64,000 nucleotides of DNA, from positions 864,001 through 928,000 of the forward strand of contig CAWIIP010000004.1 in assembly GCA_963836235.1 (NCBI GenBank). The letters run 5' to 3'. A model generated the notes under the pieces. It made no database searches, was not told the DNA's origin, and was given only the letters and a program-made list of their open reading frames with translations. Shown here one piece after another: positions 40,703-56,912 of the stretch (its first letter is position 1; each line of letters starts with the position of its first letter). Position numbers and translations under genes: made by a program. Origin of the DNA: an uncultured Pseudomonadota bacterium. GTDB lineage: Bacteria; Oederibacteriota; Muellerivitia; Muellerivitales; Muellerivitaceae.

Positions 40703-41488
40703 ATGCCTAGTGGACTTTATATCGCGGCTTCGGGTATGGATTCAGCCTTGATGAGGCAAAATGTTATTGCGAACAATTTAGCAAATGTTCAAACGGTTGG
40801 GTTTAAACAAAATCGAGAAGTCGATGTAGCTTTTCCGACTTATCTTATAGCTCGATTGCACGATCAGCGCATTAATGTACTGGATGGGACTGCTGAAATT
40901 AGGCCGAATATTGGTGTTATGGGTGGAGGAGTCATTCCTCAGGAAGTTGCAACGGACTATTCACAGGGTTCACACCTTGAAACCAAAAATCCTTTGGATT
41001 TTGCCTTGAATGGTCCTGGCTTTTTCTCGGTTTTAAATCCGGACGGGAAAACATTATTGACGAGGGATGGAAACTTTAGTTTGGACTCAAATGGTAGGCT
41101 TGTAACAAAAGATGGGTTGCCTGTTTTGGGTCATAATGGTGAGATTTACATCGATGGAAATGAGGTTACGGCGGACCAAGAGGGGAATATAACGGTTGAT
41201 GGTAAGGCCCTTGACCAGCTGTTGACGGTCAAGGTTCAAAACGTTGATCAACTTACAAAGGTCGGCCATTCTTTATTCAAGACAACTCCCAAAACTAAGG
41301 TAGACATGGCTCCTGATGGAATACAAGTTCAACAAGGTTTTTTGGAACAATCGAACGTGAATTCCATTACAGAGATGGTAAATATGATCGATACTTATCG
41401 GTCATATGAACTAAACTCCAGAATTATTTCGACTTTTGACCATCTTGGTGAAGAAGCTGCGACTGAAATTGGAACTTTGAGGGTTTAG
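40703..41488 (+). CDS. flgF: Flagellar basal-body rod protein FlgF
   Basis: IANNLANVQTVGFK, NPLDFAL.G.GFF, TRDGNF, LEQSNVN; precedes flgG. Confidence 0.9.
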   Translation: MPSGLYIAASGMDSALMRQNVIANNLANVQTVGFKQNREVDVAFPTYLIARLHDQRINVLDGTAEIRPNIGVMGGGVIPQEVATDYSQGSHLETKNPLDFALNGPGFFSVLNPDGKTLLTRDGNFSLDSNGRLVTKDGLPVLGHNGEIYIDGNEVTADQEGNITVDGKALDQLLTVKVQNVDQLTKVGHSLFKTTPKTKVDMAPDGIQVQQGFLEQSNVNSITEMVNMIDTYRSYELNSRIISTFDHLGEEAATEIGTLRV

Positions 41489-41525
41489 TTTAAAATAAGA
41501 TTTTGATCGTTGAATAAGTGAAGAA

Positions 41526-41584
41526 AACGGCCGGACTGCTATGCGGGGGCCGTTCCCGACGCCGAATGATTGAGGCGAAGGAAC
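41526..41584 (+). ncRNA. Candidate cis-regulatory two-hairpin RNA element, copy 1 (flgG leader)
   Basis: AACGGCC/GGCCGTT stem with inner CTGC/GCGG; second stem CGCC-GAATGATTGA-GGCG; aligns with the copy upstream of flgE. Confidence 0.6.
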
Positions 41585-41630
41585 AACCGAAAGCTGGATT
41601 TTTTCGGCTTTCAAACCTGAGGAGGCTTTT

Positions 41631-42428
41631 ATGATGCAGTCACTTTATACGGCGGCAACGGGCATGTCTGCCCAGCAGTTGAATCTTGACACAATTTCCA
41701 ATAACTTGGCAAACGTGAGCACCACGGGGTTTAAAGCCCAACGGGTGGATTTCCAAGACTTGGTGTATAAGAATTTGAAGCCAGCCGGGACGCCTACCTC
41801 CCCTGAGACAAACACTCCAGACGGACTTCAAATTGGTGAGGGTGTTATGCCAATTTCCACAGAGCGTATATTTACCGAGGGTGCAATTCAGAATACCAAT
41901 AATCCTTTGGACATATTAATTCAGGGAAACAATGGTTTTTTCCAAGTTACCCTTCCAAATGGGGAAACGGCTTATACTCGGGACGGTTCTTTTACCCAGG
42001 ATGGTAATGGAAATATTGTTACCGCTAATGGCTACTTTCTAAACCCCCCAATTCAACTTCCTGCAGAAACTAGCTCAATTCAAATTACTTCTACCGGGCA
42101 GGTCATGGTGCAAGCGGGAGGTTCAACGCAAGCTGTTCAAATCGGTCAATTGGAACTAACTAACTTTGTGAACCCCGGGGGACTTAGTGCGATTGGGAAT
42201 AATCTTTTTCTGCAAACGCCCGCTTCGGGAGATCCTATTCAAGGAACTCCAGGTTCAATAGGATTTTCCGCTGTTCAACAAGGTTCTTTGGAAACTTCTA
42301 ACGTGGATGTGGTGACCGAAATGGTAAACATGATTGTCGCTCAACGAGCGTATGAAATGAATTCTAAAGCGGTTTCAACGGCGGATACAATGTTGCTTGA
42401 TCTTGCCGGAATGAAACAATTTCCCTGA
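41631..42428 (+). CDS. flgG: Flagellar distal rod protein FlgG
   Basis: SLYTAATGMSAQQ, FQDLVY, GLQIGEGV, LETSNVDVVTEMVNMIVAQRAYEMNSK. Confidence 0.97.
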   Translation: MMQSLYTAATGMSAQQLNLDTISNNLANVSTTGFKAQRVDFQDLVYKNLKPAGTPTSPETNTPDGLQIGEGVMPISTERIFTEGAIQNTNNPLDILIQGNNGFFQVTLPNGETAYTRDGSFTQDGNGNIVTANGYFLNPPIQLPAETSSIQITSTGQVMVQAGGSTQAVQIGQLELTNFVNPGGLSAIGNNLFLQTPASGDPIQGTPGSIGFSAVQQGSLETSNVDVVTEMVNMIVAQRAYEMNSKAVSTADTMLLDLAGMKQFP

Positions 42429-42443
42429 TGATGAATTAGCGGC

Positions 42444-43421
42444 ATGAGACGATTTATATGGTTGACACTTTTGGCCTTCGTTACATTTCCGCTTTATGGG
42501 GAAGAAGGTCTTTTAACCATTCACGTTTCGGAAAATGCGGCGGTTGTCGGGCCGGGGGTGTCGCTGGGAGAAGTTGCGAAGATTACTGGAAAAAATGAAG
42601 CGATGATTGAACGGGTTCGACGCTTGATTGTGAGTAAGGCGGCTCCTGCGGGGGAACGAATTAAGCTCAGTCAGGGTTACATTAGGGTTGTTTTGCGCCG
42701 TGAGGGTTTTTCTCTTGATGACTTTACTTTTTCGGGTTCGAATTCTACGGAGGTGTTAACTCAAAGCCAAGATTTTTTTCCGGAAGACCTACTTCCCCAA
42801 GCGAAGCTATTTATTTTGAAAGAAATTAACGAAATCCCTGAAAATGTTGAAGTTCAGCTGGATGGAGTTAATAAAAAAATGCTTTTGCCGGCCGGGAAAA
42901 TTACGGCGAACTTTCGACCATCATTCTCCGGAAAGTATGAGGGAGAAGTTTTATTAACGACAGAATTGGACGTTGATGACCACTTGATAAAAGTATTACC
43001 TCTGCGTTTGACGGTGGAACTCAATCGTCCGGCGGTGGTAACGACGAAAAGGATTGAAAAAGGGGAAAAATTCAACTCTGAAAATATTGCTTTGGTTCGT
43101 GAACCAAGTTCTAAGATAATGCAGGGGTGTTTTCAACAATTGAGTTATGTTTTGGGGCGAACGGCTTTAATGCCGTTGATTCCAGATACGGTCATCCGGG
43201 TTGATGAGATTTTTGATCCACCCGTTGTCCTTCGAGGCAAAATTATTCAAGCCATAGTTCGACTTGGGAATGTAGAACTTAGCGTGGATGCAAGGGCAAT
43301 TGAAGATGGTAAAGCTGGGGACATAATTCGAATTGAAAATTTGGATTCTCATAAGGTCCTTCGCGCTAAAGTTTTAGATGAAAAAACGGGTTTGATTCAA
43401 AACAACGAACCGAAGTATTAG
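42444..43421 (+). CDS. flgA: Flagellar P-ring chaperone FlgA
   Basis: Signal peptide; SAF-like C-terminus ARAIEDGKAGDIIRIENLDSHK. Confidence 0.92.
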   Translation: MRRFIWLTLLAFVTFPLYGEEGLLTIHVSENAAVVGPGVSLGEVAKITGKNEAMIERVRRLIVSKAAPAGERIKLSQGYIRVVLRREGFSLDDFTFSGSNSTEVLTQSQDFFPEDLLPQAKLFILKEINEIPENVEVQLDGVNKKMLLPAGKITANFRPSFSGKYEGEVLLTTELDVDDHLIKVLPLRLTVELNRPAVVTTKRIEKGEKFNSENIALVREPSSKIMQGCFQQLSYVLGRTALMPLIPDTVIRVDEIFDPPVVLRGKIIQAIVRLGNVELSVDARAIEDGKAGDIIRIENLDSHKVLRAKVLDEKTGLIQNNEPKY

Positions 43422-43435
43422 CGGGGGTTAAATAA

Positions 43436-44050
43436 ATGAAAATTTGTTTTTTGATTTTTATCGGATTTCTTGTTTTAGCGGTAGATCAAGGTTTGCTCGC
43501 CGATTCGCTTTATCCGGTTGAGGGTACGAATTCCATTTATACCGAGAAGAGAGCTCGCCGGGTTGGTGATGTGATTACTGTGATGATTGAAGAAAATACA
43601 CAAGCTTCACAAGCAGCCGGCAGCCAATACAACAAAAATGCCAGTGTGGCATTGGGGGCGGGATCCGGTTTTTTGGGTGCGGGCTCGTATGCTGGGGGTG
43701 TACTTAATTCCCCCGCCCAGATAGGTGTTGGTGCCAGTTCCGCAGCTCAAGGACAAGGAACCTCAAGTCGGAGTACGACGGTTACGGGGGAAATGACGGC
43801 TAAAATTCTTTCAGTGCTCCCAAATGGGAATTACCTTATCGACGGAAGCCGTTATGTTGAAGTTAACGATGAAAAGCAAACAATCGAAGTCACTGGTGAA
43901 ATAAGGTCGGATGATATTTCAAAAGAAAACACAGTTTCTTCCCAACGAATAGCGAATGCAAAAATAAAATTTACCGGTACTGGCCCAGCGTCTGAGGTTG
44001 CAAAGCCCGGAATATTGACTCGTGTTTTAAGTTGGCTGGGGCTCTTTTAG
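43436..44050 (+). CDS. flgH: Flagellar L-ring protein FlgH
   Basis: RARRVGDVITVMIEE, VLPNGN..I.G, IRSDDI..NTVSS.RIANA. Confidence 0.93.
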   Translation: MKICFLIFIGFLVLAVDQGLLADSLYPVEGTNSIYTEKRARRVGDVITVMIEENTQASQAAGSQYNKNASVALGAGSGFLGAGSYAGGVLNSPAQIGVGASSAAQGQGTSSRSTTVTGEMTAKILSVLPNGNYLIDGSRYVEVNDEKQTIEVTGEIRSDDISKENTVSSQRIANAKIKFTGTGPASEVAKPGILTRVLSWLGLF

Positions 44051-44067
44051 ATAGTCTGGAGGAAATT

Positions 44068-45177
44068 ATGGCGGCGAAGAAATTTAAAATTTTAATTATC
44101 GTTTTTCTTCTTGGAATCGGAACCGCACAGTCGGCTCAAGTTCGATTAAAAACCATTGCGACGGTGAAGGGAGTTCGTGAAAATCAGTTAATAGGTTATG
44201 GTTTGGTGGTGGGTCTTCAAAGAACAGGTGATACACAGCGGGTTGTTTCTACTTTACAAAGCATCACCAACATGTTGATGAACTTTGGAATAAAAATTAG
44301 TTCTGACCAGATTAGGACTCAAAATGTTGGTGCGGTTATGGTAACGGCCCAATTGGCACCGCTTTTAAAATCAGGAGATAAAATTGATGTTACGGTTTCT
44401 TCCATAGGTGATGCCAGAAGTCTTCAGGGAGGAACGTTGTTAATGACCCCACTTCAAGGTCCCGACGGACAGGTCTATGCCGTAGCTCAAGGACCGCTTG
44501 CCGTCGGTGGTTTTTCCGATAATACGGGAGAGTTTCCGTTGATCCAGGTGAACCATACAACCGTTGGTCGGGTTCCCAATGGAGCCGCTGTGGAAAGAGA
44601 AGTCCCTTCTACATTCGTTGATAACGATACTATCTCAATACTTTTAGATCGTCCGGATTTTGGTCAAGCATCTCTGGTCACACAAGCGCTCAACCAGCAA
44701 TTTGGTGAACAGGTCGCGAAGGCGGTGGATGGAGGACAGGTGGATGTGAAAGTTCCCTTTAATTATCGTGATAATGTTGTTGACTTTATAGCCGCTGTCG
44801 AAGATGCGCCTGTTGCTACGGACTCTCCTGCCAATAGGGTTGTTGTCAATGAAAAAACTGGAACTGTAGTTCTTGGGCAGGATGTAAGAATTGACGCCGT
44901 GGCCATCGCCCATGGGAATCTCCGGCTAGTGATTAAAAAAACGACTGAAATTACCCATGATGCGGTTTTTGGCCACGATGAGCTTACCCATACAACGACT
45001 GTCAGTTCGGATGATACTGATAAAAAAGGTAATTTAGTGGTCTTGCCAGAAGGAGCAACTTTGATGGATGTGGTTGAAGCGGTCAACGCGGTAGGCGCCA
45101 CTCCGCGGGACTTGATTTCAATTCTTCAAGCAGTCAAAGAAGAGGGCGCATTACACGCCGAATTGGATATTCTTTAA
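44068..45177 (+). CDS. flgI: Flagellar P-ring protein FlgI
   Basis: GVRENQLIGYGLVVGL, SLQGGTLLMTPL, VVNEKTGTVV, GALHAEL; GGAGG RBS before ATG 44068. Confidence 0.97.
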   Translation: MAAKKFKILIIVFLLGIGTAQSAQVRLKTIATVKGVRENQLIGYGLVVGLQRTGDTQRVVSTLQSITNMLMNFGIKISSDQIRTQNVGAVMVTAQLAPLLKSGDKIDVTVSSIGDARSLQGGTLLMTPLQGPDGQVYAVAQGPLAVGGFSDNTGEFPLIQVNHTTVGRVPNGAAVEREVPSTFVDNDTISILLDRPDFGQASLVTQALNQQFGEQVAKAVDGGQVDVKVPFNYRDNVVDFIAAVEDAPVATDSPANRVVVNEKTGTVVLGQDVRIDAVAIAHGNLRLVIKKTTEITHDAVFGHDELTHTTTVSSDDTDKKGNLVVLPEGATLMDVVEAVNAVGATPRDLISILQAVKEEGALHAELDIL

Positions 45178-45195
45178 GATTAAGGGGCTCGAACA

Positions 45196-45666
45196 GTGAA
45201 TCTTCCAACCCAAGCCATTTCTTTTTTGCCATTTGGACTTTCTGATCCCTCAAAGACGCTTCCGATGGAGGCGATGCAAAAAGTCTTTTCCCTTCAACCG
45301 GATTTGGCTTCGAAAGCGGCCGATCAGGTAATATTGGGGCAATCGGGTTTGTCGCATTTAACGAAAAACAGTTCAGCAGCGTCATTAAATCCATTGCACG
45401 GAGCACCAACCCACACGGATGACGAGATTCGGCAAGTATCTAAAAATTTCGAATCTATTTTTTTACAAATGGTTTTTAAAGAAATGAGAAAGTCGGTCCA
45501 AAAATCGAATTTATTAGGGAATTCACAGGGAATGGAAATTTTCGAGAGTATGTACGATGAAGATTTAACCCAACAGCTTGCTTCCTCTAGAGGGGTTGGG
45601 TTGGGACAAATGATTTATCAAAGACTGAAGGCTGTTACTGTACCCCATCAAAAAACATTTTCATGA
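45196..45666 (+). CDS. flgJ: FlgJ-like rod-binding protein (no muramidase domain)
   Basis: FESIFLQMVFKEMRKSV...MYDE...GLGQMIYQRL. Confidence 0.85.
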   Translation: MNLPTQAISFLPFGLSDPSKTLPMEAMQKVFSLQPDLASKAADQVILGQSGLSHLTKNSSAASLNPLHGAPTHTDDEIRQVSKNFESIFLQMVFKEMRKSVQKSNLLGNSQGMEIFESMYDEDLTQQLASSRGVGLGQMIYQRLKAVTVPHQKTFS

Positions 45667-46094
45667 GTTTGGCGAATTGTTCGCGTTGTGGAAAGGTTTT
45701 TTCGTTTCTCCCAGGCAGTAGGGATGTTTGTCAGTCCTGTATCAAAGAAGAAGATGATAACTACTTAAAAATTTTTCACTTCCTTTCGACCCGCCCCAGC
45801 GCAACTGCTTCCGAAATTTCCCAAGCTACTGAAGTCGATATCAAAGAAATTTATCGCTATGTTCGCGAGAACCGCCTGCGATTAGTCAAAATCGATACTG
45901 GTTTATGTTGTGAAAGCTGTGGCATCCCTATTTCCCAAGGAAAAATTTGTGACGAATGTCGTCAAAAGCTTTCGAACGAAATGAAAGGAGAAATTGACAA
46001 AATTAAACAATATAAATCAAAACAAACTCTCTCAAACAAGTCACCTAGGGATCCAAAATACTTGAAGGATAGGCGTCGAAAGGATAAAGGCTGA
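45663..46094 (+). CDS. YvyF-like flagellar operon zinc-ribbon protein
   Basis: LANCSRCGKVF..CQSC and CESCG..ICDEC; upstream of flgM. Confidence 0.8.
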   Translation: MSLANCSRCGKVFSFLPGSRDVCQSCIKEEDDNYLKIFHFLSTRPSATASEISQATEVDIKEIYRYVRENRLRLVKIDTGLCCESCGIPISQGKICDECRQKLSNEMKGEIDKIKQYKSKQTLSNKSPRDPKYLKDRRRKDKG

Positions 46095-46178
46095 TAAAAT
46101 TGGGTTTTTTCTCGTTTTTGGCAAAAAAGGGCTTATACATAAGCTTTGGAGCTTTATTCCATTCCCATCAATTTGGCC

Positions 46179-46205
46179 TAAAGTTTTAACGGGTTAAACC
46201 GTTAG
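46179..46205 (+). promoter_or_regulatory. sigma28 promoter upstream of flgM
   Basis: TAAA 46179-46182 (TAAAGTTT), 15 nt spacer, ACCGTTAG 46198-46205. Confidence 0.7.
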
Positions 46206-46233
46206 GTTCTTTAGAAAAATAAAGGAGTTTGCC

Positions 46234-46524
46234 ATGCGTATCGATGGATTTCAGAATATTCCAGCTGTTCTTCAGTCTTTTAAGAATGACAAACAACTTA
46301 AATCAAATCTGGATAGTGAAACGAGCCCGTCTTCTTCTGTTTCTTTGAGTTCTTTCGCGGAAGTACTCCAGTCTTTGCAACGAGATTCGGCTCAAGCGGC
46401 CAAAACTAGAAGTGCGAGAGTGGATCAACTAGCCCAGCAAGAACAAACTGGAAAACTTTCTGTTGATTTACAGAAATTGGCATCTAGTTTGGTTAGTTCA
46501 CAAGTGATTGATACCAAAGGATGA
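46234..46524 (+). CDS. flgM: Anti-sigma28 factor FlgM
   Basis: MRID..., VSLSSFA, RSARVDQLAQQEQTGKLSVDLQKLA; gene position. Confidence 0.8.
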   Translation: MRIDGFQNIPAVLQSFKNDKQLKSNLDSETSPSSSVSLSSFAEVLQSLQRDSAQAAKTRSARVDQLAQQEQTGKLSVDLQKLASSLVSSQVIDTKG

Positions 46525-46527
46525 CAA

Positions 46528-47019
46528 ATGCTTGAGTTGATGCGTTCGTTAATCAGCTGTTTAAAAAAAGAGACAGAACATTATCGCAATCTTGCGATTT
46601 TAGCCGCCCAACAAAAAGATTTGTTAGTGGCCGGCAAGGCGGACTCTTGGAAAGAGAACTTTCGTCTCGAGGAAAAAGAAGTATTTGCTTTAAATCCCTT
46701 GGTTGGAGAACGAAATGAATTATTGTCCAAAATAGCTAAAGCCAACGGCTTGAAAACTATTGATTTGGAAGGTGTTCTGGAAAAATGTCCTATCGAAGCA
46801 GTTGAGGATTTTAAGACGGCCGTAATTGAGCTGATTCAAGCAGCGAAACACACGGAAGAAATAAACAAAGGAAATGGAAAGCTTTTGAAAAATGCGCTTT
46901 CCAACGTCAATTTTACTTTAAAGATTATAAAAAACGGCGGAAAGAAAAGATCCTTCTCTCCGGCTTTGAAATTGACATCGGAAGAAAACAGGCCGTCATT
47001 TGTTAATCGGGTGGTTTAA
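46528..47019 (+). CDS. flgN: Flagellar export chaperone FlgN
   Basis: Helical 163 aa, INKGNGKLLKNAL; between flgM and flgK. Confidence 0.8.
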   Translation: MLELMRSLISCLKKETEHYRNLAILAAQQKDLLVAGKADSWKENFRLEEKEVFALNPLVGERNELLSKIAKANGLKTIDLEGVLEKCPIEAVEDFKTAVIELIQAAKHTEEINKGNGKLLKNALSNVNFTLKIIKNGGKKRSFSPALKLTSEENRPSFVNRVV

Positions 47020-47028
47020 GGAGGAACT

Positions 47029-49386
47029 GTGATAAATTCTTTTTCGGGTTTTTATACCATAACTCAAGGCTTACAAGTCGAACAACTCCTTGAAAACATA
47101 ACCGCTTCCAATTTGGCTAATACTTCCGTTGATTCCAATGGGTACTTGGTTGGCAGCCTTCAACAGGTCAATATTGGCTCCGGACCTTCCGATATTCTGT
47201 CGACTGCTAATGGAAATGTTGCGATTTCGTCTGGGCCAAGCATCGAGTCTATTACCCAACTTCGCAGTTCCTTCTTGGATTCTCAGATTCTAAATGAAAG
47301 TTCTGTTTTGGGACAAACAGAAGTTTTGTCCAACACCCAAGGTTCCGGAATATTAAATCTCATCAACAATATCGTGAATGGCCCTTCTACTTTAAACGGT
47401 GCTTTGAATACTTTCGCGGCTTCTTGGGGGAATTTGGCGACAAATACTGGAACGAGAGCCGCAGTCGTTAACGCGGGCATCGCTTTCGCTCAGTTAGCCA
47501 ACACTCAGTACGAACAGTTGAATACCTTGCAGCAAAACAACAACGCGCAAATCAATAATTCTGTCTCTCAAATCAATCAAATCCTTCAGCAGCTGTCCGC
47601 TCTAAACCATGATCTTTTAAACTCACAAGGTGCCGCAAACGTTAATAGTTTGTTGGATGCCCGGGATTATGCATTGGATAAGCTTTCGCGCTTGATTAAC
47701 ATCCAAACGAACATTGGAGTCGGAGGAACCGTGAGCGTTTATTTGGGTGGGAGTAGCGTAACCTTAGTGGATCCATCCGGAGCCGCGATTTTACAAACGA
47801 ATGTTGAGAACCCAAATTATCCTGAATTGCTTGGCGTGACCATTCAAAATACGGAAGGCGGGTTTTACGATGCGGCGAGCGCTAATGGGACTGTAACTCC
47901 AGAGGATATGTCGCAATGGATTACTGGTGGTAATCTCGGGGGAGAACTTCAAGGTCAAAAGGCGATTTTATCCGCTCAAGACCAAGTCGAACAAATCGCG
48001 ACGTCGGTGATGAATATTACCAATACCTTACAGGAAGCCGGGTATGCGGGGGATGGCACAACGACCAATACGCCCTTTTTTAATGAAACGGGCCCGGCGG
48101 GTATTGGCATCAATGCCGCCACGCAAATGAGCGTCAACGCCGCATTGATTACAAATAATAATTTGGTGGCATCCTCCCTGGTCCCCAGCAGCGATCCAAA
48201 CTACAGCTTGGTCAATCCTAACTTATCAACACCTGGAATTTTGTATAGCGGGACCATAGCCGAGTATCTTTCGAACCTGCCCAATATTTTGGCTAATAAC
48301 TTTGCCCAAAGTTATGATGGAATTGCCGGGGCTTACGTGAATCCGGCGCTGGCCCTTTCGACTCAGACTTTTGCCATTACTCCAACGAACGGTTCCTTTA
48401 CCATTAATGGAAAAACAATTAATTATTTTGTCAATAATGCGGCAGCCGTCGCGGCGGGGATGCCGACCGCCCCTTACACTATTGACGGCATTATTGAAGC
48501 CATAAATGCGGCTGATCCAAACATATATGCGGTTTATAACGCCTCTACAGAGGAGTTTTCTCTGGTATCAAATCAACCTATTTCTATTCAAAACCTAACC
48601 GGTAATTTTGTGGGAGGTTTATCCAACTGGAGCAATATTCAAAATGTCTTGACGAGTACTATTCAAATGAACAGTTCGAATATCCCTATTTATTCCCAGA
48701 TTGACTATGGCTCTGTCGGGGGCGATCCTGGAAACCCAATGAACGCAACGGTTCCCAGCGCTTTTTTTCCGAACACCGGACCTAACTCCCAGTCTTTCCA
48801 GATAGTTCCGTCCGCCAGTGGCACTTTCACCCTTTATCCTCCCTATCCCAATGGAGTACAGGTTTCGTGGAATAATACAATGTCGTTATCACAAATTGCC
48901 ACGGCCATTACCGCGGCTTCGGGCGGTGCCATTACCGCGAGTTTTGATACCAACACAGAGACTTTGACCCTGTTTGACTCTACGCCATTACCGATGAATA
49001 TTGTCGATAACACGGGAAACTTCACTTCCTTCACCGGGTTGAACGGGAATATCACGCTGGGAACTATGACATCCGCTTTATCGGGCCCATACAGTTCCAT
49101 CGGTTCCGCTGTAGCGGGTCAGCAGGCATTAACCGACCAAGCCTCAAATTCTTTGACACAATTGCAAAACGCTCAGGACAATATCGCCGGAATCACCACC
49201 CCTGGGTCAGGTCTCGCGGGTGTTTCTACCGCCACTATTGAGCAGCAGGCAACCCAGGAAATGATTGCTTACAACGCATTGCTGATGGTGTTGCAGGTGA
49301 TGGACAATATGTATTCTGATTTGGTGGGAATCATTGGTAGCTCGACGCCGAGTGGAAGTTTTCAAAATCAATCTACGCCGGTTTAA
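47029..49386 (+). CDS. flgK: Hook-associated protein FlgK (HAP1), highly divergent
   Basis: SNLAN..., ITQLRSSFLDSQI, LLDARDYALDKLSRLINI, ITGGNLGG, terminal AGVS...AYNA..V.D.M helix; follows flgN. Confidence 0.8.
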   Translation: MINSFSGFYTITQGLQVEQLLENITASNLANTSVDSNGYLVGSLQQVNIGSGPSDILSTANGNVAISSGPSIESITQLRSSFLDSQILNESSVLGQTEVLSNTQGSGILNLINNIVNGPSTLNGALNTFAASWGNLATNTGTRAAVVNAGIAFAQLANTQYEQLNTLQQNNNAQINNSVSQINQILQQLSALNHDLLNSQGAANVNSLLDARDYALDKLSRLINIQTNIGVGGTVSVYLGGSSVTLVDPSGAAILQTNVENPNYPELLGVTIQNTEGGFYDAASANGTVTPEDMSQWITGGNLGGELQGQKAILSAQDQVEQIATSVMNITNTLQEAGYAGDGTTTNTPFFNETGPAGIGINAATQMSVNAALITNNNLVASSLVPSSDPNYSLVNPNLSTPGILYSGTIAEYLSNLPNILANNFAQSYDGIAGAYVNPALALSTQTFAITPTNGSFTINGKTINYFVNNAAAVAAGMPTAPYTIDGIIEAINAADPNIYAVYNASTEEFSLVSNQPISIQNLTGNFVGGLSNWSNIQNVLTSTIQMNSSNIPIYSQIDYGSVGGDPGNPMNATVPSAFFPNTGPNSQSFQIVPSASGTFTLYPPYPNGVQVSWNNTMSLSQIATAITAASGGAITASFDTNTETLTLFDSTPLPMNIVDNTGNFTSFTGLNGNITLGTMTSALSGPYSSIGSAVAGQQALTDQASNSLTQLQNAQDNIAGITTPGSGLAGVSTATIEQQATQEMIAYNALLMVLQVMDNMYSDLVGIIGSSTPSGSFQNQSTPV

Positions 49387-49401
49387 GAAAAGGCTGGTTT
49401 T

Positions 49402-52400
49402 GTGAAAACAATTAATGCGCTTTTAAATTCATCGCTTTCGACGCCGACCGACTCAATCGGTCAGTCACAGAGCCAAAATCCGGTTTCCCCCAAGGGTTCG
49501 GGATCAAAGGGGAATAACTTTGGAAATGTTTTGGCCCAATTAACCGCTCAAAATACCGTAACTAACCAGAATTCTCCCGAAAGCCAGCAGTCCTCCGGAG
49601 CCACCACTTCAACTGGAAATGCGACTAGCGCTACATTGGAGCCAACTGCGGTTTCCGCTTCGAATGCTCCTGGGGAAAATTCCCAAGTGTCCTTTAATTC
49701 TGTTTCTGAAACCACGGTGGCTATTACAGAGTCGGTTAAAGCCGAAAATGTTAGCCAATTGGCTCAAGCGGAACAAGCCTTGGTTTCTTTGGCGACGGGG
49801 TTGGCCCAAATTATTCAAATGATTTCACAACTTCAACAATCGGAACCGCAACAAGCCCAAGCGGCTTTGGCTTCTTTAAGTAGTTTGAATTTGAGTCCAT
49901 CCGATCTTCTGACAATTTTAAATACCTTGCAATCTTTGGTTCAAAAGTTGCCAGCTGAGCAAAATCCGCTGCTCTTAACTTCGGACCAACAAGCCAATCT
50001 TTTAAACCAAATGTTCCAACAAATGATGCAGGCCCAACAAATTTTACTTGGAGGGACCGCGGCCAATCTTGGGAACAATTCTAACCCGACAAACTCATCG
50101 GCCAATAATCCTGGTGTTGCTGGGGTGGGAACGATAGGTTCGAATTCTACCCAAAATATTTCGTTCCAAATGTTGTTTTCAAATACAAACTTGACTGAAC
50201 TGGCTCCAAACAATGGTCAAGCCTCCCGGGTTTTTATAAATTTAGAAACCTTTAAAATGTCGGCGACTTTTATCCAAACTGGAACCAATTCAACACCGGG
50301 ACAAAACCCTGGCCAAGGTCCCTTGAACGTCCAAGTTCAATCGGCCATTCCGGTTAATTCCCAAAGCGTGGTCAATGATTTAAATCAAGCATTGACGAAT
50401 TTAGGCAATGCGACCTCATCGGCGGGTATTCCCGCGGTGGCGCAATCAAACGCGTCCGGCATCGCTAATTTACAAAATAATTTAAGTCAAAACTTTAAAG
50501 CGCTCGTTCAGCTCTTGATGCAATCGGGTGTAACTCAGGCGGCACTGACCACGTTCCTGAATAACCAACAAAGAGGTACTGAGAATCAGAACTCTTTTAG
50601 CCCGTCTCAAACTGTTGGCCAAACCGTTTCAGCTAATAACCTAACCCAGGTTTTACCGGTTTCGTCGGAGATTCAACCGGCCATTCCCGCGGCTTTAACG
50701 GCAGCTTCAACTAATAATTCCAATGCGGCCCAAGGGACGCTTCCGGGCGAAAATAATTTGCTCGTGAATGAAATGGGTTCTCAACCGGTGATAACACCGG
50801 TTCAAACAACGGGTAAAGAAAACGCCAACAATCAACAAAGCTTGAGTGTTAGTAATACCACCCTGGCCTCAAATGAAGTGGTTCCTCAATTGGCGATACC
50901 ACCGGTTCAAACAACGGGTAAAGGAGAAGCCAACAATCAACAAGGTTTGAACGTTGGCAATAATAACCTGACCTCAAATGAAATGGTTCCTCAAACGGCG
51001 ATGCTACCGGTTCAAACGGCGGATAATGGAGATTCAAAAATTCCAAATATGACTGAAAAACTCCAAGCGTTATCAAATCTTGCCCAATTGTCGCCTGTTC
51101 AAACGGCGGGTTCTGAAACCAGTTTTGGTTTAAATGCCAAAGAAATTAATACTTTAAACGCGGTTGTCGCAAGTCTTAATGTCTCTGCCTTACATTCCAC
51201 GCAAGGAAGCGTGAGCATGGGAACGAATACCGTTCTTCCCAGTTCCGCCTTGACGATGGGCCAAATATTAGGGGCTTCGGAGGCCAATCAAATTTCTTCG
51301 GGTTCCATCGTGGTTGCGAATGGTAATCCATCGGTTCCTTTGGTCCCGCCGATTCCTTTGCAAGCGCCTTTGCCAACCTCTAACGCAAACAATGTCATTC
51401 TTTCGCAATTAACCCAAAGCCAATTGTCCCAACCGCAAACGACATCGCCGTCTACCACGGTTGGTGGCCAAACCGTTGCGGTTCTTTCCGGCGCTTCTCA
51501 AGAGCAGTTAAATCAAGTGGTTCCGCCTTTGGTTCCGACACCACAGGGCGCACTTTTAAATAATTTAACGTCGAATAATGGTGTTGTTACTTCCCCGATT
51601 GATTTTAATAACGGGACTTCGGCCGTTCCGGCTCCTATAAGCCCTTCTTTGGCCGTGGTAGGGAGCAATGTCCCTAATTCGTCAACCACAAATAATCCTG
51701 CTGGGATTAATCCTTTGCCTCGGCCAACCACTATTCCTAATTCGGGAACAATTCCATTGCCGGCTAATAACAGCCCTGCGCCCCCCCAACCTTTTGCTTT
51801 CACATCGCTTAACCAAACGGCTAATCTGGCACCGACATCTCAAGCCCCGGTTGTTCCCGCTTTGGCTTCGGCTGGGGAAGCTATTAAAACTGAGATTCCA
51901 AATCAAGCGGTGGGGAACAATAATAATGTCCAAACTGCTATTAACAATTCACAACCTGTTTCAACCATAAAATCGCTTTCGGCCGAGGCGGTTTCACCCG
52001 TTGTTTCAGTTACCCCAACCGACTCGACCTTGAAAACTTTAGATGTCTCTGGAAGTAACACGCCTAATAATTCGACCGTTTTGGTGGGGAATGCCTTATT
52101 GGGATCTGCCAACTTTGCCTCTGGTCAAACCCACGGTTCTTCCGCTTTTTCCCTTAGTTCTGGTATACCCTCAAACGTAGGGCCAACGGGGAGCATTGAT
52201 AGCGCTCAAATCTTGAATCAAATAGCGCAACAAGTTGCGGCACAAACGGCGGACGCTAAAACTATTTCCCGATTGAACTTTCAATTTGTTCCCGAGAGTT
52301 TAGGCAAAGTGACGGTTCAAATTGCTTTAATTGACCAATCCGTTTCGGCCCGAATTATCGTCACCAATCCGGATATAAAAGAAGTTCTCCAGAGCCATAT

Positions 52401-52641
52401 GGTGGATTTGAAAGCGGCACTGGGTCAGGCGGGCCTTCAAATAGACCAATTGCAGGTGCAGGTTCAAGGCGGCGGGGGCAATCTTTTAGCCCAATATTAC
52501 CAATATCAGCAAGAAGGTTCTGGCTATCGTCTTCCGGCCGCTTTAAACACCGCAAATGTATCCGGGGTGCAAACAGCTGAAAATATGGGAAATTTGGAGC
52601 CTTTTTCAGTTCGGACGTCCTTGGTGAATGTCTTGGCTTGA
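49402..52641 (+). CDS. fliK: Very long hook-length control protein FliK
   Basis: Low-complexity Q/N/S/T/P body; C-domain FQFVPESLGKVTVQI...LQSHMVDLKAALGQAGLQIDQLQV; upstream of flgD. Confidence 0.88.
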   Translation: MKTINALLNSSLSTPTDSIGQSQSQNPVSPKGSGSKGNNFGNVLAQLTAQNTVTNQNSPESQQSSGATTSTGNATSATLEPTAVSASNAPGENSQVSFNSVSETTVAITESVKAENVSQLAQAEQALVSLATGLAQIIQMISQLQQSEPQQAQAALASLSSLNLSPSDLLTILNTLQSLVQKLPAEQNPLLLTSDQQANLLNQMFQQMMQAQQILLGGTAANLGNNSNPTNSSANNPGVAGVGTIGSNSTQNISFQMLFSNTNLTELAPNNGQASRVFINLETFKMSATFIQTGTNSTPGQNPGQGPLNVQVQSAIPVNSQSVVNDLNQALTNLGNATSSAGIPAVAQSNASGIANLQNNLSQNFKALVQLLMQSGVTQAALTTFLNNQQRGTENQNSFSPSQTVGQTVSANNLTQVLPVSSEIQPAIPAALTAASTNNSNAAQGTLPGENNLLVNEMGSQPVITPVQTTGKENANNQQSLSVSNTTLASNEVVPQLAIPPVQTTGKGEANNQQGLNVGNNNLTSNEMVPQTAMLPVQTADNGDSKIPNMTEKLQALSNLAQLSPVQTAGSETSFGLNAKEINTLNAVVASLNVSALHSTQGSVSMGTNTVLPSSALTMGQILGASEANQISSGSIVVANGNPSVPLVPPIPLQAPLPTSNANNVILSQLTQSQLSQPQTTSPSTTVGGQTVAVLSGASQEQLNQVVPPLVPTPQGALLNNLTSNNGVVTSPIDFNNGTSAVPAPISPSLAVVGSNVPNSSTTNNPAGINPLPRPTTIPNSGTIPLPANNSPAPPQPFAFTSLNQTANLAPTSQAPVVPALASAGEAIKTEIPNQAVGNNNNVQTAINNSQPVSTIKSLSAEAVSPVVSVTPTDSTLKTLDVSGSNTPNNSTVLVGNALLGSANFASGQTHGSSAFSLSSGIPSNVGPTGSIDSAQILNQIAQQVAAQTADAKTISRLNFQFVPESLGKVTVQIALIDQSVSARIIVTNPDIKEVLQSHMVDLKAALGQAGLQIDQLQVQVQGGGGNLLAQYYQYQQEGSGYRLPAALNTANVSGVQTAENMGNLEPFSVRTSLVNVLA
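50767..51020 (+). repeat. 105-nt (35-aa) tandem repeat, about 2.4 copies, inside fliK
   Basis: ACCGGTTCAAAC recurs at 50796, 50901 and 51006; peptide NExxxQxxxxPVQTTGKxxANNQQxLxVxNxxLxS. Confidence 0.85.
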
Positions 52642-52665
52642 AGTATGATTTTATGAGGTTTGGGT

Positions 52666-52692
52666 TAAAGTTTTTGGCTTAAAAGCCGTTAG
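52666..52692 (+). promoter_or_regulatory. sigma28 promoter upstream of flgD
   Basis: TAAA 52666-52669 (TAAAGTTT), 15 nt spacer, GCCGTTAG 52685-52692. Confidence 0.7.
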
Positions 52693-52718
52693 AAATAACA
52701 GAAAGGGTGGTGATTTAA

Positions 52719-53162
52719 ATGGTTTCAGGAGTTGGAAGTAGCTCGAGTTCGAACGGTAGCAATGCTTTATCAAGTGCGTTGGCTACATCGACGGGTGGCA
52801 ACCAGTTTGTGTCTCAGAATACGTTTTTGACGCTTCTGATAACACAGCTGAAAAACCAAGATCCGATGAATCCGCAGGACAGCAGCCAGTTTGTCGCCCA
52901 GTTGGCGCAGTTTTCGTCACTGGAGCAAATGACGCAGTTAAACTCAACATTTAGCAGCGTTTTGGACAATTCAGCGGCGGGCATGATCGGACAAACGGTG
53001 ACGGTTGCGGATCCGACCACGAAAAGTGGGTTCACGACGGGCCAAGTGACGGGTGTTGTTTATTTCGCCAATGGTCCGGCAGTTCAGATAAATGGAGTGA
53101 ACTATCCCTTGTCGGCTATTCAAAACGTTGGGGCAGTTACGCCTAACGCACCGACGGGCTGA
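52719..53162 (+). CDS. flgD: Flagellar hook capping protein FlgD
   Basis: FLTLLITQLKNQDPMNPQD..QFVAQLAQFSSLEQ. Confidence 0.96.
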   Translation: MVSGVGSSSSSNGSNALSSALATSTGGNQFVSQNTFLTLLITQLKNQDPMNPQDSSQFVAQLAQFSSLEQMTQLNSTFSSVLDNSAAGMIGQTVTVADPTTKSGFTTGQVTGVVYFANGPAVQINGVNYPLSAIQNVGAVTPNAPTG

Positions 53163-53214
53163 GTTTAGTGATTTGGCCTGGATTTCAGGCTTTTGAAAGG
53201 CGGGTGAAGACAAA

Positions 53215-53622
53215 GTGGTTCAGCAGATCAACTTTAATGATCCTCATAGTACGGTAGAAAACGTCCAGAATCAGGCCCAGTTGCAGATGATGCAGCAACA
53301 GGCCAGCCGGGCGGCTGAAACCGCACAACCTTTTGACGCGTTTTTGCAATCAACGGTTGATAGGGGTCAGGGTTTAAAGTTTTCGGCTCACGCCAAAGAA
53401 CGATTAAGTTTGAGAAACATCAACCTTTCGGCTTCGGATTTGAGCCGCATGAATGACGCGGTCAATAAAGCGGCGGCTAAAGGGGCCAGGCAATCCCTGC
53501 TGGTGATGGAAAACCAGGCTTTTATCGTTAGCGTGCCGAATAAAACCGTCATTACTGCGCTGGACAACAACAGCATGAAGGAAAATGTCTTTACCAATAT
53601 CGATAGCGCGGTGATTGTTTAG
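53215..53622 (+). CDS. TIGR02530-family flagellar operon protein
   Basis: LKFSAHAKERLSLRNI...KGARQSLLV...VPNKTVITA...ENVFTNIDSAVI. Confidence 0.92.
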   Translation: MVQQINFNDPHSTVENVQNQAQLQMMQQQASRAAETAQPFDAFLQSTVDRGQGLKFSAHAKERLSLRNINLSASDLSRMNDAVNKAAAKGARQSLLVMENQAFIVSVPNKTVITALDNNSMKENVFTNIDSAVIV

Positions 53623-53646
53623 CAGTAGGTTTTGTAGTAAGCAGTA

Positions 53647-53702
53647 TCGGGCTGGTCCTCTTAGAGGGAGCCCGAAAATCAGGCGGGTTGATTACCCGAC
53701 CT
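53647..53702 (+). ncRNA. Candidate cis-regulatory two-hairpin RNA element, copy 2 (flgE leader)
   Basis: TCGGGCT/AGCCCGA stem with inner CCTC/GAGG; second stem CGGGT-TGATT-ACCCG; ends 10 nt before AAGGAGG. Confidence 0.6.
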
Positions 53703-53724
53703 AAAAACTCTAAGGAGGAAGACA

Positions 53725-55698
53725 ATGGGTCTTCGAGATATGTATAGCGCGATTTCCGGGCTTCAAGCCAACAGCACATGGCTTGATGTGATCGGAAATA
53801 ATATTTCCAACACCAATACGGTTGCTTACAAGGCCAGCCGTGTTGAGTTTTCAGATCAGTTCAGCCAGACGCTTTATGGCGGCACGGGGGACAACCCGAG
53901 TTCCAATTTGGGCGGTGTGAATCCTGAGCAAGTCGGTTTGGGAACCCGTGTGGCTTCCATCCAGACGCTTTTCACGGAAGGAACACTCCAGAATACCGGG
54001 ATTTCCACCGATATCGCCATCGTCGGAAACGGCTTTTTGGTTTCCAAGAGCGGTGACCAGTCTTTGCTGACTCGGGCTGGAAACCTGACATTCGATAGTA
54101 AAGGAAACCTTGTTGACCAGAATGGCGGGTTGATCCAAGGGTTTACCGCTACGACGGTTTACACGCAAAATACCATTGATACGGCGGCGGATTCGGGGAC
54201 CAACAACCTGATCATTACCACTGCCAAATTGACCTTAAACAATACTGATCCATCGGCCGCGACGGACATCAATATTCCGGCGACTTTGACCGAACCCCCT
54301 CTTGCCACCACGATGGTGAATTTTTCTGGCAATTTGGACGCGTTTCAACAGGCCAATACCACCGGAGGTGTTTTGGATATCGGTGGAAACGGCGAACCGG
54401 CTGTTTTGCCACTGGGTATTGCGGGCGTCGCTTTGGGCGGTGCCGAACCCGTTGCTGCGTTCCAGATTATCAACAACCCCAATGGGGCTACGGGACAGGT
54501 TGTTCAACAGCTTGCGGACCCTAATGAAGGCGCTGTTGGCCCTGGCGACCAAGCGGGCGTGCAAGGAAACACCAATTCTGCCAATTGGACAAATCCCATC
54601 GTCAGTGGGGCAGTCAGTTTGGCCACTGTCCAAGGGGACGCCATTGCCAACCCTGGCACCCTCGCTTGGGACCAGCAACCACCCGTCACTCCGGCGAAAC
54701 AGATATCGGAAACGGTTTATGACTCCAATGGGAACGCCCGGCAGATCACCATTAATTTTTATCAAGTGAATGATTTGGGAGTGACACCCAATATCAACAG
54801 CCCCACCGGCCCTAACCAGGTCGCTTACGCTTGGTACGCTTTCGACACAACGAATGGAGCGCCTGTTAATTCCACTACCCTTGTGGGTGGAACCGGAATC
54901 TTCGAGGGCGACACTTCTGGAGCTGGCCCCGTTGGAGCTCCCACTGGTTATGACCGGGGCGTCACCGGAGACGGATTTTGGGGCGACTTGGTTGTCTTCA
55001 ATACGGATGGGTCCTTGCTTACAACCGGCGGGGTTGAAAATACCGCGGCGGGGATTGGGTTTCAATCCATGCCTGATATTTACCTTGATCCTGAGAATAT
55101 TGCGGGTGCGGTTCCTGGGGCGAATGGTCTCGGAGCTCCTGCTTCGCCGCTTCCCATGCAAGGCGCCGAAATTACACAGGTACAATTGAATTTCGGTAAC
55201 GCGGGGATTTTGGGCAAAGGGGAGCGCAACGGCATGTACAGCGACGCTGACGGGACTTATCAGGTTGTCAATGGGGTGAACACTTATGTGCCTAACTCCA
55301 CAGCCTATGCCGCCAGCCAGAATGGATACGCTGAGGGTCAGTTACAAAGCGTCAACTTTGACGCTACGGGGACCATCAACGGAACCTTCTCAAACGGACA
55401 GGTTACGGCGCTCGGCCAAGTTATTTTGGCCGAACCGAACAATCCGGACGGCTTGGCGAACGTCGGTAATAATTATTACCAAACTTCTCCAAACTCAGGC
55501 CCCATGTTCGTGGGAAATGCCGGCCAATTGGATTTGGGAACCGTCCAAGGTGGTACCTTGGAACTTTCCAACGTCGATTTGACCGTGGAATTATCCAACA
55601 TGATTATCGCCCAACGCGGGTTTGACGTGAACTCGCGGGTGATCTCGGTTGAGAATTCCAACCTGCAGATCCTGAGCCAATTGGGTCAGGGCGGCTGA
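53725..55698 (+). CDS. flgE: Flagellar hook protein FlgE (long, with inserted domains)
   Basis: LDVIGNNISNTNTVAYKASR, NPEQVGLG, TRAGN, LELSNVDLTVELSNMIIAQRGF. Confidence 0.96.
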   Translation: MGLRDMYSAISGLQANSTWLDVIGNNISNTNTVAYKASRVEFSDQFSQTLYGGTGDNPSSNLGGVNPEQVGLGTRVASIQTLFTEGTLQNTGISTDIAIVGNGFLVSKSGDQSLLTRAGNLTFDSKGNLVDQNGGLIQGFTATTVYTQNTIDTAADSGTNNLIITTAKLTLNNTDPSAATDINIPATLTEPPLATTMVNFSGNLDAFQQANTTGGVLDIGGNGEPAVLPLGIAGVALGGAEPVAAFQIINNPNGATGQVVQQLADPNEGAVGPGDQAGVQGNTNSANWTNPIVSGAVSLATVQGDAIANPGTLAWDQQPPVTPAKQISETVYDSNGNARQITINFYQVNDLGVTPNINSPTGPNQVAYAWYAFDTTNGAPVNSTTLVGGTGIFEGDTSGAGPVGAPTGYDRGVTGDGFWGDLVVFNTDGSLLTTGGVENTAAGIGFQSMPDIYLDPENIAGAVPGANGLGAPASPLPMQGAEITQVQLNFGNAGILGKGERNGMYSDADGTYQVVNGVNTYVPNSTAYAASQNGYAEGQLQSVNFDATGTINGTFSNGQVTALGQVILAEPNNPDGLANVGNNYYQTSPNSGPMFVGNAGQLDLGTVQGGTLELSNVDLTVELSNMIIAQRGFDVNSRVISVENSNLQILSQLGQGG

Positions 55699-55868: not shown

Positions 55869-56912
55869 TTGGAAAGACTTGAATTGAAAACTTACTATTT
55901 TGCTTTTTGCTTTTTTGTCCTTCTGGGATTGTCGATGGGTTGTACTAAATCACCGTCTTCCCCAGGTTCGGGTCAATGGGGCGAAGCCACGGCCCACGCG
56001 CCTTTTTCAGGCCGTTATGGTCTTTCGGGAACTGTTTTTAACGGCCTCATGTGGGTCGTGGGAGGGGCGGCGGGCAACGCGGATAATTCCGTGACCTATT
56101 ACGATGCCGATATTTGGTCATCCAGTAATGGATCGGCCTGGACAGAAGCGACTAGCAGCGCGCCTTTCGGAGGCCGGTATGGCAGCCAAACACTTTCTTA
56201 TAACGGGAAAATGTGGCTTATTGGTGGAAACAACAGCGGAACTTTGAAAAATGATGTTTGGAGCTCGCTGGATGGGGTCAATTGGACGCAGGTTTTGGCT
56301 TCAACGGGCAAGGGAACGGCAACCCAATTTAGCCCAAGGGAAGATTTTGGGGCTGTTGTTTTCAACAACGCCATGTGGGTTATTGGAGGCTGGGCTGGGG
56401 TGAGTAAAAATGATGTTTGGAGTTCGACGGATGGAATCAATTGGACTGAAGTAAATGCCAATGCTGCTTTTGCGGCGCGATGGGGGATGTCTACTTTGGT
56501 TTACAATAATACCCTATGGCTGATTTCAGGGACTTCCGGTTCAAGTACCAATTTTCCCACTACGGCGGGTTATGGCGATGTTTGGTCCTCGCCCGATGGC
56601 AATGTTTGGACAAAAGTTAACAACTTGGCTCCTTTTGGACTATCGTATTATCATCAAGTTGTTTCAAACGGCGGCCTGATGTGGCTTTCGGCGGGCTTCC
56701 TCTGGCCCACTTGGGGTCCGCAAAGTACCGTTTGGACTACGGGTGACGGCGTAACATGGTCCAATGTTTCTTCCCCCTTTCCGGCGCGATTTTATCACTT
56801 AAGTCTTTCCTACAATAACCAGGTATGGGTTATCGCTGGTTGTAATAATCTATGCAATAGTACTTCCGGCTGCGCGATTACTTATTTAAACGATGTTTGG
56901 TACACCCGGTAA
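55869..56912 (+). CDS. Kelch-like beta-propeller lipoprotein
   Basis: LSMGC lipobox; about 6 repeats of F..R.G....(F/Y)N..MW.IGG....NDVWSS.DG.NWT. Confidence 0.8.
   Translation: MERLELKTYYFAFCFFVLLGLSMGCTKSPSSPGSGQWGEATAHAPFSGRYGLSGTVFNGLMWVVGGAAGNADNSVTYYDADIWSSSNGSAWTEATSSAPFGGRYGSQTLSYNGKMWLIGGNNSGTLKNDVWSSLDGVNWTQVLASTGKGTATQFSPREDFGAVVFNNAMWVIGGWAGVSKNDVWSSTDGINWTEVNANAAFAARWGMSTLVYNNTLWLISGTSGSSTNFPTTAGYGDVWSSPDGNVWTKVNNLAPFGLSYYHQVVSNGGLMWLSAGFLWPTWGPQSTVWTTGDGVTWSNVSSPFPARFYHLSLSYNNQVWVIAGCNNLCNSTSGCAITYLNDVWYTR

Follow-up and report, generated by a model that had tools for sequence, protein, structure and literature searches.

A two-hairpin leader RNA with fixed unpaired purines precedes flagellar rod and hook genes in at least four phylum-level groups of bacteria

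The leaders of two flagellar genes, flgG and flgE, carry copies of one structured RNA motif in a 64,000-nucleotide (nt) stretch of DNA (hereafter the window; contig CAWIIP010000004.1 of GenBank assembly GCA_963836235.1, positions 864,001 to 928,000) from an uncultured bacterium of the family Muellerivitaceae. The motif is about 59 nt long and is located between the stop codon of an upstream gene and the ribosome-binding site (RBS) of a rod or hook gene. Its RNA folds into two covarying hairpins, and a small set of unpaired purines is fixed across at least four phylum-level groups. The motif is widely conserved in the leaders of flagellar rod and hook genes and is absent from Rfam, and we are highly confident that it is a real, conserved, sense-strand structured RNA. 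It probably tunes the amount of hook and rod building blocks made. A first-pass annotation of the window had proposed one structured RNA element before both genes, and this proposal is borne out across phyla by covariation in both hairpins.

Copy 1, in the flgG leader, covers positions 41524–41582 of the window, and copy 2, in the flgE leader, covers 53645–53703 (all features of the window given here are on the forward strand). The two 23-mers that the first-pass annotation had aligned are exactly where it had put them (41529–41551 and 53650–53672), and the three pair changes read as it had quoted them: C-G versus T-A at 4:20, G-C versus T-A at 10:16, and T-G versus C-G at 9:17. RNAfold places both 23-mers inside longer stems, with hairpin 1 extending over 41526–41554 in copy 1, where pair counts also define it, and over 53647–53675 in copy 2. 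Both copies of hairpin 1 have a lower stem of 7 base pairs (bp), a 3-nt bulge on the 5′ side, an upper stem of 4 or 5 bp, and a 3-nt loop. In copy 1, the bulge is GGA (41533–41535), the upper stem has 4 bp, the loop is UAU, and the 3′ side contains an unpaired purine, G 41547. In copy 2, the upper stem is CCUC/GAGG and the bulge is GGU (53654–53656), nearly all other copies having GGA. A second hairpin with TGATT in its loop, followed by the RBS, had also been described for both leaders and is indeed present in each. In copy 1 it spans 41556–41581, as judged from sequence, RNAfold and alignments, with a stem at 41560–41563/41574–41577 that encloses the loop GAAUGAUUGA (41564–41573). In copy 2 it spans 53681–53702 and takes a family-specific, short-loop form with the loop UGAUU (sequence and RNAfold). 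The folding z-scores of the two leaders are −2.1 and −2.8.

The genome contains two copies of the motif, both of them flagellar leaders. A BLAST search of the 3.97-Mb genome with each leader returned no further copy, not even the other leader. A covariance model of hairpin 1 (R1) scored 43.8 bits at the flgG leader and 37.7 bits at the flgE leader, while its next-best matches (24.3 and 22.3 bits) were inside NuoN-like and cation-efflux coding sequences. The two-hairpin model R3, run without filters over the whole window, gave 67.3 bits (E = 8e-12) for copy 1 and 33.2 bits (E = 6e-5) for copy 2, the next match having 15.6 bits (E = 0.23); model R2 gave 71.9 bits for copy 1. Among family relatives, 14 genomes have exactly two matches, one before flgG and one before the syntenic flgE. 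The motif is thus not a genome-wide repeat unrelated to flagellar genes; a match to such a repeat is what the first-pass annotation had named as fatal to its proposal. Neither hairpin is followed by a U-run on the sense strand, and a terminator scan flagged neither of them.

The fold is supported by compensatory changes. Hairpin 1 was 94.3% paired in 40 copies aligned with MAFFT, with compensatory changes at 7 of 11 pairs; none of 500 shuffles reached the observed pairing, and slid controls did not exceed 53%. The two-hairpin form was 91.6% paired in 29 copies (MAFFT) and had compensatory changes at 13 of 19 pairs, including seven of the eight in hairpin 2. RNAalifold independently predicted the same two-hairpin fold. 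In an alignment of 93 copies from four groups (A7), 90.6% of 1685 cells were paired and 17 of 19 pairs were compensatory, with slid controls at or below 50%. The ten column pairs with the highest mutual information in A7 were all predicted pairs, and mutual information over these 93 copies gave no extra covarying pair that would hint at a pseudoknot or loop-loop contact. Covariation in homologous leaders, the lack of which was another result that would have spoken against the earlier proposal, is supported for both hairpins by these counts. G-U pairs outnumber A-C pairs by 111 to 47 in the 93 copies, and therefore a sense-strand RNA is favoured.

The unpaired positions are also strongly conserved. 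Within the bulge, G10 and G11 are found in 93/93 copies and A12 in 91/93, the C13-G39 pair is found in 93/93, and G7 is near-invariant. The base opposite the GGA bulge is a single purine (A in 63 copies, G in 30). Loop 2 is approximately 10 nt long and reads G-A-N-Y-G-A-N-N-G-A, with each G or A position kept in 80–85 of 82–87 copies. Loop lengths range from 3 to more than 10 nt across the motif. The apical loop of hairpin 1 is variable and has three or more nucleotides, and the 3′ strand of this hairpin is purine-rich and resembles a Shine-Dalgarno (SD) sequence. Two other readings of these positions were rejected. A kink-turn at the GGA bulge is ruled out by the next base, which belongs to the invariant C-G Watson-Crick pair, and an upstream open reading frame (ORF) starting from an AUG in loop 2 is ruled out by the many orthologues that read ACG.

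Orthologous leaders were examined at flgG and flgE loci taken from 40 relatives. All family members share the flgG-leader consensus ACGGCC-GGA-CUGC-loop-GCRG-R-GGCCGU, then CGCC-GAAYGAYUGA-GGCG, and model R2 scored 61–79 bits in 17/17 family flgG loci searched. The flgE leader follows a small flagellar gene of the PF12611 family and reads CGGGCU-GGA-CCUC-loop-GAGG-R-AGCCCG in 12 of the 13 syntenic family loci, the leader of L051 being divergent; the GGU bulge of the window is a minority variant that it shares with one relative. The flgE leader carries a second hairpin of the long-loop, flgG type in two families farther away within the phylum (L070 and L074), from which it follows that the window contains two diverged versions of a single two-hairpin motif. 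Relatives also have a second flgE paralogue (L058–L064 and L068), which is non-syntenic, is preceded by a sigma-28-like TAAAG...GCCGTTAG promoter and lacks the motif. The second flgE paralogue of the genome studied here is found at C2:491043-492938 and has 57% identity. The start of flgE (53725–53733 in the window; L045–L057) reads ATGGGTCTT in 11 of the 13 syntenic family loci, synonymous positions included, and this uniformity may reflect an RNA-level constraint near the start codon.

Elsewhere in the phylum, R2 matched in 38 of 99 genomes. Families that had first been scored as negative yielded a variant copy in 12 of 14 loci in a 16-kb search (E < 0.02). These variant copies directly follow PF12611; their upper stem is longer and their second loop is short. 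One complete genome of the phylum has further copies before flgF, before fliK, and before a gene of unknown identity encoding 161 amino acids (aa); a second genome has the motif before flgD, and a third has it before a MerR-like gene that is followed by flgB. In the window, a small gene encoding a MerR/HspR-like helix-turn-helix protein (12720–12980) is directly 5′ of flgB, without the motif there, whereas this gene pair is preceded by the motif in another family of the phylum (L090, 2659–2910).

The motif extends well beyond this phylum. When one genome per species was scanned with a sequence pattern, 118 stretches matched; most of these were noise from GC-rich genomes, and 23 were beside flagellar rod genes. 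Records titled 'candidate division FCPU426' carry the family's own form of the motif. Hairpin 1 was found between flgF and flgG in records titled Thermoleophilia, Solirubrobacteraceae, Actinomycetes and Actinomycetota, and it was also found in a record titled 'Armatimonadetes'. We then searched samples of 151 genomes per group with R3, which was built from 61 copies, at E ≤ 0.01; group names are the titles of the records used as sample centres. The Clostridia-type phylum (Lachnospiraceae-titled centre) had matches in 94/151 genomes, with scores of up to 62.7 bits, and the Armatimonadetes-type phylum had 29 matches in 18/151 genomes. Six of the 151 genomes in the Thermoleophilia-centred group were positive (five matches before flgG and one non-flagellar), as was a single genome of the Spirochaetota-type phylum (1/151; Spirochaetales-titled centre), where the copy is between flgF and flgG. 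No match was obtained in the 151 genomes of the Chloroflexota-type phylum (Anaerolinea-titled centre).

The genes downstream of the motif form a consistent set. In all of the top 30 Clostridia-type loci, the motif either directly precedes flgE (or a short FlgE-like gene) or separates flgF from flgG, and the flgE copies of this phylum follow a PF12611 gene whose product ends in ...NIDSAVI. Of the 29 Armatimonadetes-type matches, 20 precede flgE, flgF, flgG or fliK (BLASTP), and seven more are before flgF-flgG, before flgD or after PF12611, so that 27 are in rod or hook neighbourhoods; the remaining two comprise one before a FlgN-like gene and one without a recognised neighbour. Flagellar copies are always on the sense strand. 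Counting all genomes, the targets outside the window include flgF, flgD, fliK and the flgB operon. The common theme is rod and hook genes, which encode early export substrates, rather than two high-copy subunits alone. The first-pass annotation had proposed a cis-regulatory RNA that sets the output of distal-rod and hook subunits. The cis-regulatory part of that proposal still rests on position and conservation, and the regulated set is wider than the distal rod and hook.

The first-pass annotation had recognised no named RNA family for the motif, and the Rfam covariance-model search that it had suggested found none. All 4227 models of Rfam 15, including flg-Rhizobiales and the cyclic di-GMP (c-di-GMP) riboswitches I and II, were run against the window at gathering scores and yielded only a tRNA. 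At E ≤ 10, the two leaders gave only chance-level matches outside or across the motif, and at E ≤ 1, 20 Clostridia-type loci gave nothing at the motif. The model Termite-flg (RF01729; gathering score 40 bits) had no match in the whole genome at E ≤ 10. Searches of the literature for flgE or flgG leaders, mRNA, the motif and FCPU426 found no description of the motif, supplements not being covered; they returned work on small RNAs (sRNAs) and CsrA in Campylobacter and other species, and surveys of FCPU426. The main text of one paper (PMC8040213) does not mention flagella.

The closest parallels in kind are Termite-flg and flg-Rhizobiales (RF01736), which are likewise candidate cis-regulatory structured RNAs before flagellar genes, found by comparative genomics and of unknown mechanism. 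However, their models give no match here and their distribution differs, as they are listed from the termite gut only and from Rhizobiales only, respectively (Weinberg 2010, PMC2864571). A second parallel is offered by CsrA-bound flagellin leaders (PMC4894983); examples with a FliW partner switch are Bacillus subtilis hag and Campylobacter jejuni flaA. The motif shares with these leaders a structured 5′ leader that shows a GGA before a flagellar structural gene, and perhaps a second contact at the RBS, GGA within an SD sequence being uninformative as to a CsrA-type second site. It differs from them in that its targets are rod and hook genes instead of flagellin, its GGA is a 3-nt bulge between two helices instead of an apical loop (the apical loop being variable), and it requires a second hairpin with a GA-NY-GA-NN-GA loop. 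As in CsrA-FliW circuits, post-transcriptional control through such a leader would couple synthesis to assembly or export. CsrA (PF02599) and FliW (PF02623) were not found in the 99.4%-complete genome, although control genomes matched, and both were rejected as partners on this ground.

Further comparisons are with RNAs that are read by small molecules or by proteins. The c-di-GMP-I and -II riboswitches are found upstream of clostridial flagellar operons as aptamers of approximately 85–90 nt at operon starts, with terminator platforms. Like them, the motif is a leader RNA that precedes clostridial flagellar genes and combines covarying stems with conserved unpaired bases, but it is about 59 nt long, mostly intercistronic, without a fixed platform and without a match to their models. 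The tandem hairpins, or a hairpin with an internal loop, also recall ANTAR targets and the leader operators of ribosomal proteins, which are read by proteins. ANTAR targets consist of two tandem hexaloop hairpins with A at position 1 and G at position 4. The motif does not show this pattern: hairpin 1 has a variable loop, and it is in the bulge and in the 10-nt loop that bases are fixed.

The most likely reading, to which we assign a probability of roughly 45%, is that the motif is a post-transcriptional operator bound by a factor. The fixed purines (the GGA bulge, the opposing purine, and the GA-NY-GA-NN-GA of loop 2) would be contacted by a trans-acting factor specific to the flagellum, most likely a protein. 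On binding, this factor would govern translation initiation of the downstream cistron and perhaps also its lifetime, and the output of rod and hook subunits could then be matched to the state of assembly inside long operons without separate promoters. The geometry of the copies fits a bound factor better than a standard riboswitch. In the Clostridia-type phylum, the median gap between the upstream stop codon and the motif is 3.5 nt, compared with 40 nt in the window's own phylum, and 62 of 92 copies overall begin within 40 nt of that codon. The distance from the end of hairpin 2 to the start codon ranges from 14 to 337 nt. With a short distance to the stop codon and a variable one to the start, the motif is mostly intercistronic and lacks a fixed platform; most copies have neither a terminator nor a fixed expression platform.

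A possible switch is suggested by complementarity to the start site. The 5′ strand of hairpin 1 (GAC and the next 3 nt) is exactly complementary to the RBS or start region in flgE-type leaders and in the family's flgG-type leaders. Hairpin 1 might therefore alternate between a formed state, in which the start site is free, and a GACNNN:start-site helix that blocks the start. Hairpin 1 of the family's flgG leaders contains GACUGC, which can pair base for base with GCAGUC in codons 2–3, and RNAfold often prefers the long-range GACUGC:GCAGUC helix. The start region of flgG in the window (41619–41641) comprises the SD sequence GAGGAGG (41619–41625), the ATG at 41631, and GCAGUC at 41636–41641, which is complementary to GACUGC in hairpin 1. 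In Clostridia-type flgE leaders with a CCUC upper stem, the SD sequence is GGAGGUC, the complement of GACCUC, in 12/13 cases. Of 86 leaders, 21 contained an exact 6-mer complement of the start site, whereas 1000 permutations averaged 6.9 and never exceeded 15. We regard start-site complementarity as a lead and not a general rule.

Several observations weigh against a factor-bound operator or against parts of it. The remaining 65 of the 86 leaders have no exact start-site complement, the 21 positives come from two related clusters and are not independent, and a first complementarity test, made with a faulty segment picker, gave 4.5 against 4.3 for shuffled sequences. Simple steric occlusion of the ribosome is made less likely by the variable spacing to the start codon. 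Many of the sequences behind the covariation counts are related to one another, and A7 is an alignment fitted to the model. All of the conserved bases could equally form a ligand pocket. Finally, in addition to the missing CsrA and FliW, YvyF (TIGR03826) is ruled out as an obligate partner by its absence from 5/5 motif-bearing genomes of two other phyla, although it is present in 61/99 genomes of the window's own phylum. PF12611 is present in 60/99 own-phylum genomes whatever the form of the motif. It is also found in 5/5 motif-bearing genomes of the two other phyla and directly 5′ of the flgE copy in every phylum examined; given its presence regardless of motif form, this co-occurrence neither supports nor excludes a partnership. 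A genome-wide search for a partner sRNA complementary to the loop of hairpin 2 gave three strict matches, one of them the motif itself, and none was convincing. As a separate observation, a 143-aa zinc-ribbon ORF between the FlgJ-like gene and flgM (45663–46094) scores 115.7 bits for TIGR03826 (YvyF), slightly below the curated cut-off of 124.

We consider a riboswitch a less likely but serious alternative. The two hairpins would pack through the GGA/purine internal loop and the GA-rich loop and sense a small molecule or ion related to motility, for example a nucleotide second messenger, and the ligand would fix hairpin 1, thereby freeing or hiding the start site or a terminator. Stems that covary around invariant unpaired purines, as seen across phyla, are the pattern expected of an aptamer, and c-di-GMP riboswitches precede clostridial flagellar operons. 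In one complete genome of the window's own phylum (L086 1001–1130; L087 1350–1470), two of four copies are followed by near-identical terminator-like hairpins with U-runs, which suggests control by attenuation in that lineage; sigma-70-like TTGACA/TATAAA boxes are 5′ of these copies. The complementarity of the SD sequence to GACCUC of hairpin 1 in 12/13 Clostridia-type flgE leaders with a CCUC upper stem could also serve a ligand-driven switch. The same holds for the third hairpin of the window's flgG leader (41589–41612; RNAfold), whose 3′ strand, GGCUUUC, could alternatively pair with the SD sequence GGAGGCU (41606–41627); family members also have a hairpin at this place, with unrelated sequence. 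On the other hand, there is no common expression platform, given spacings of 14–337 nt, mostly no terminator, and 65/86 leaders without a start-site complement. Moreover, no extra covarying pair was seen, the apical loop of hairpin 1 is variable, no Rfam riboswitch matches, and only rod and hook genes make up the regulon, each genome having between one and five copies.

An element for mRNA processing or stability without a dedicated regulator is as likely as a riboswitch and is likewise a serious alternative. Under this reading, cleavage of the operon mRNA between cistrons would leave the flgE and flgG segments shielded or insulated by the stable GC-rich hairpins, with the consequence that high-copy subunits would be made in excess over their neighbours. 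The products of flgE and flgG, the usual downstream genes, are high-copy axial subunits, and the intercistronic position close to the upstream stop codon and the stability of the hairpins are as such a role would predict. Gram-positive mRNAs have SD-like 5′ stabilisers, which the purine-rich 3′ strand of hairpin 1 recalls. However, a plain protective hairpin needs no invariant unpaired bases across four phyla, low-copy genes (fliK, flgD and the MerR-like gene) are also preceded by the motif, and, where promoter-like sequences are seen, the motif is approximately 18–35 nt downstream of them and not at the extreme 5′ end.

A DNA element, such as an inverted-repeat operator or part of an alternative-sigma promoter for rod and hook genes, is very unlikely. 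In many bacteria, the promoters of rod and hook genes are of the sigma-54 or sigma-28 type. Sigma-28-like boxes are indeed found 5′ of the motif, both in records titled Thermoleophilia and in one genome titled Armatimonadetes; in the flgG leaders of the records titled Thermoleophilia, Solirubrobacteraceae, Actinomycetes and Actinomycetota, the box reads CTCAAGAA...GCCGATAAC and is 5′ of hairpin 1. Yet the motif keeps its pairs by compensatory changes and not as conserved half-sites, with G-U pairs in excess of A-C pairs; its bulge is asymmetric, its loops of 3 to more than 10 nt break any fixed promoter spacing, and it is always on the sense strand, downstream of the promoter-like boxes and, in the Clostridia-type phylum, abutting the stop codon. 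A sigma-54 promoter in particular is ruled out, since the distance from GGAC to the 3′ strand varies with loop length and the pairs covary, including G-U. Six Actinomycetes-titled flgG leaders (L100, L110, L121, L161, L165 and L198) have a sigma-28-like promoter, CTCAAGAA-N-GCCGATAAC, approximately 25 nt 5′ of hairpin 1; their SD sequence is overlapped by a third hairpin (CCCGAG...CUCGGG). Chance resemblance, a genome-wide repeat, or ordinary terminators of the upstream genes have a negligible probability: stop codons are often followed by stable hairpins and covariation cannot be shown from two sequences, but the motif has no other genomic copies and no sense-strand U-run at either hairpin, it is strongly conserved with covariation among orthologues and across phyla, and a control scan at E ≤ 0.01 gave no match in 151 Chloroflexota-type genomes. 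Explanations at the DNA level and by chance are effectively excluded.

The window as a whole comprises a large flagellar gene cluster that extends from the MerR-like gene (12720) and flgB (13192) to flbD. Its genes run MerR-like, flgB, fliE-fliF, motAB, fliA, FapA, flgF, flgG, flgA, flgH, flgI, FlgJ-like, YvyF-like, flgM, flgN, flgK, fliK, flgD, PF12611, flgE, Kelch-repeat and flbD. Pfam confirmed flgF, flgG, flgD, the PF12611 gene and flgE. Copy 1 is flanked by flgF (40703–41488) on its 5′ side and flgG (41631–42428) on its 3′ side, and copy 2 by the PF12611/TIGR02530 gene (53215–53622), a small flagellar gene of unknown function, and flgE (53725–55698). The adjacency of the PF12611 gene to the motif at copy 2 is kept across phyla. 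Three further genes of the window were recorded. The FliK homologue (49402–52641) is unusually long at 1079 aa, with only a C-terminal Flg_hook domain recognised; a Kelch-repeat beta-propeller protein (55869–56912) is encoded between flgE and flbD, within the cluster; and a gene for a GAF-GGDEF diguanylate cyclase (10365–12512) is immediately 5′ of the cluster.

To our knowledge, the only well-described flagellar circuit at the RNA level is CsrA-FliW acting on flagellin, and we know of little understanding, beyond the enteric transcriptional hierarchy, of how the copy numbers of rod, hook and accessory proteins are set within one operon or how the early export substrates are shut off. Against this background, we tentatively suggest, as a possibility that we consider doubtful but worth stating, that the motif is the RNA half of an ancient and undescribed flagellar-assembly checkpoint, an operator read by a flagellum-specific factor in the window's phylum and in Clostridia-, Armatimonadetes- and Thermoleophilia-titled lineages. 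Such a checkpoint would couple the translation of early type III export substrates to the state of the export apparatus, and its reader could be the unexported axial (rod or hook) proteins, acting autogenously, or the PF12611/TIGR02530 protein. It would then be the rod and hook counterpart of the CsrA-FliW-flagellin circuit; if the reader were instead a small molecule, the motif would represent a new riboswitch class for motility. The Clostridia-type phylum, in which the motif is frequent, includes cultivable motile species. The motif would add a widespread family to RNA catalogues and improve the annotation of flagellar loci, and the occurrence of the same unpaired bases before flgE and flgG in four phylum-level groups points to a conserved post-transcriptional control of the hook-basal body.

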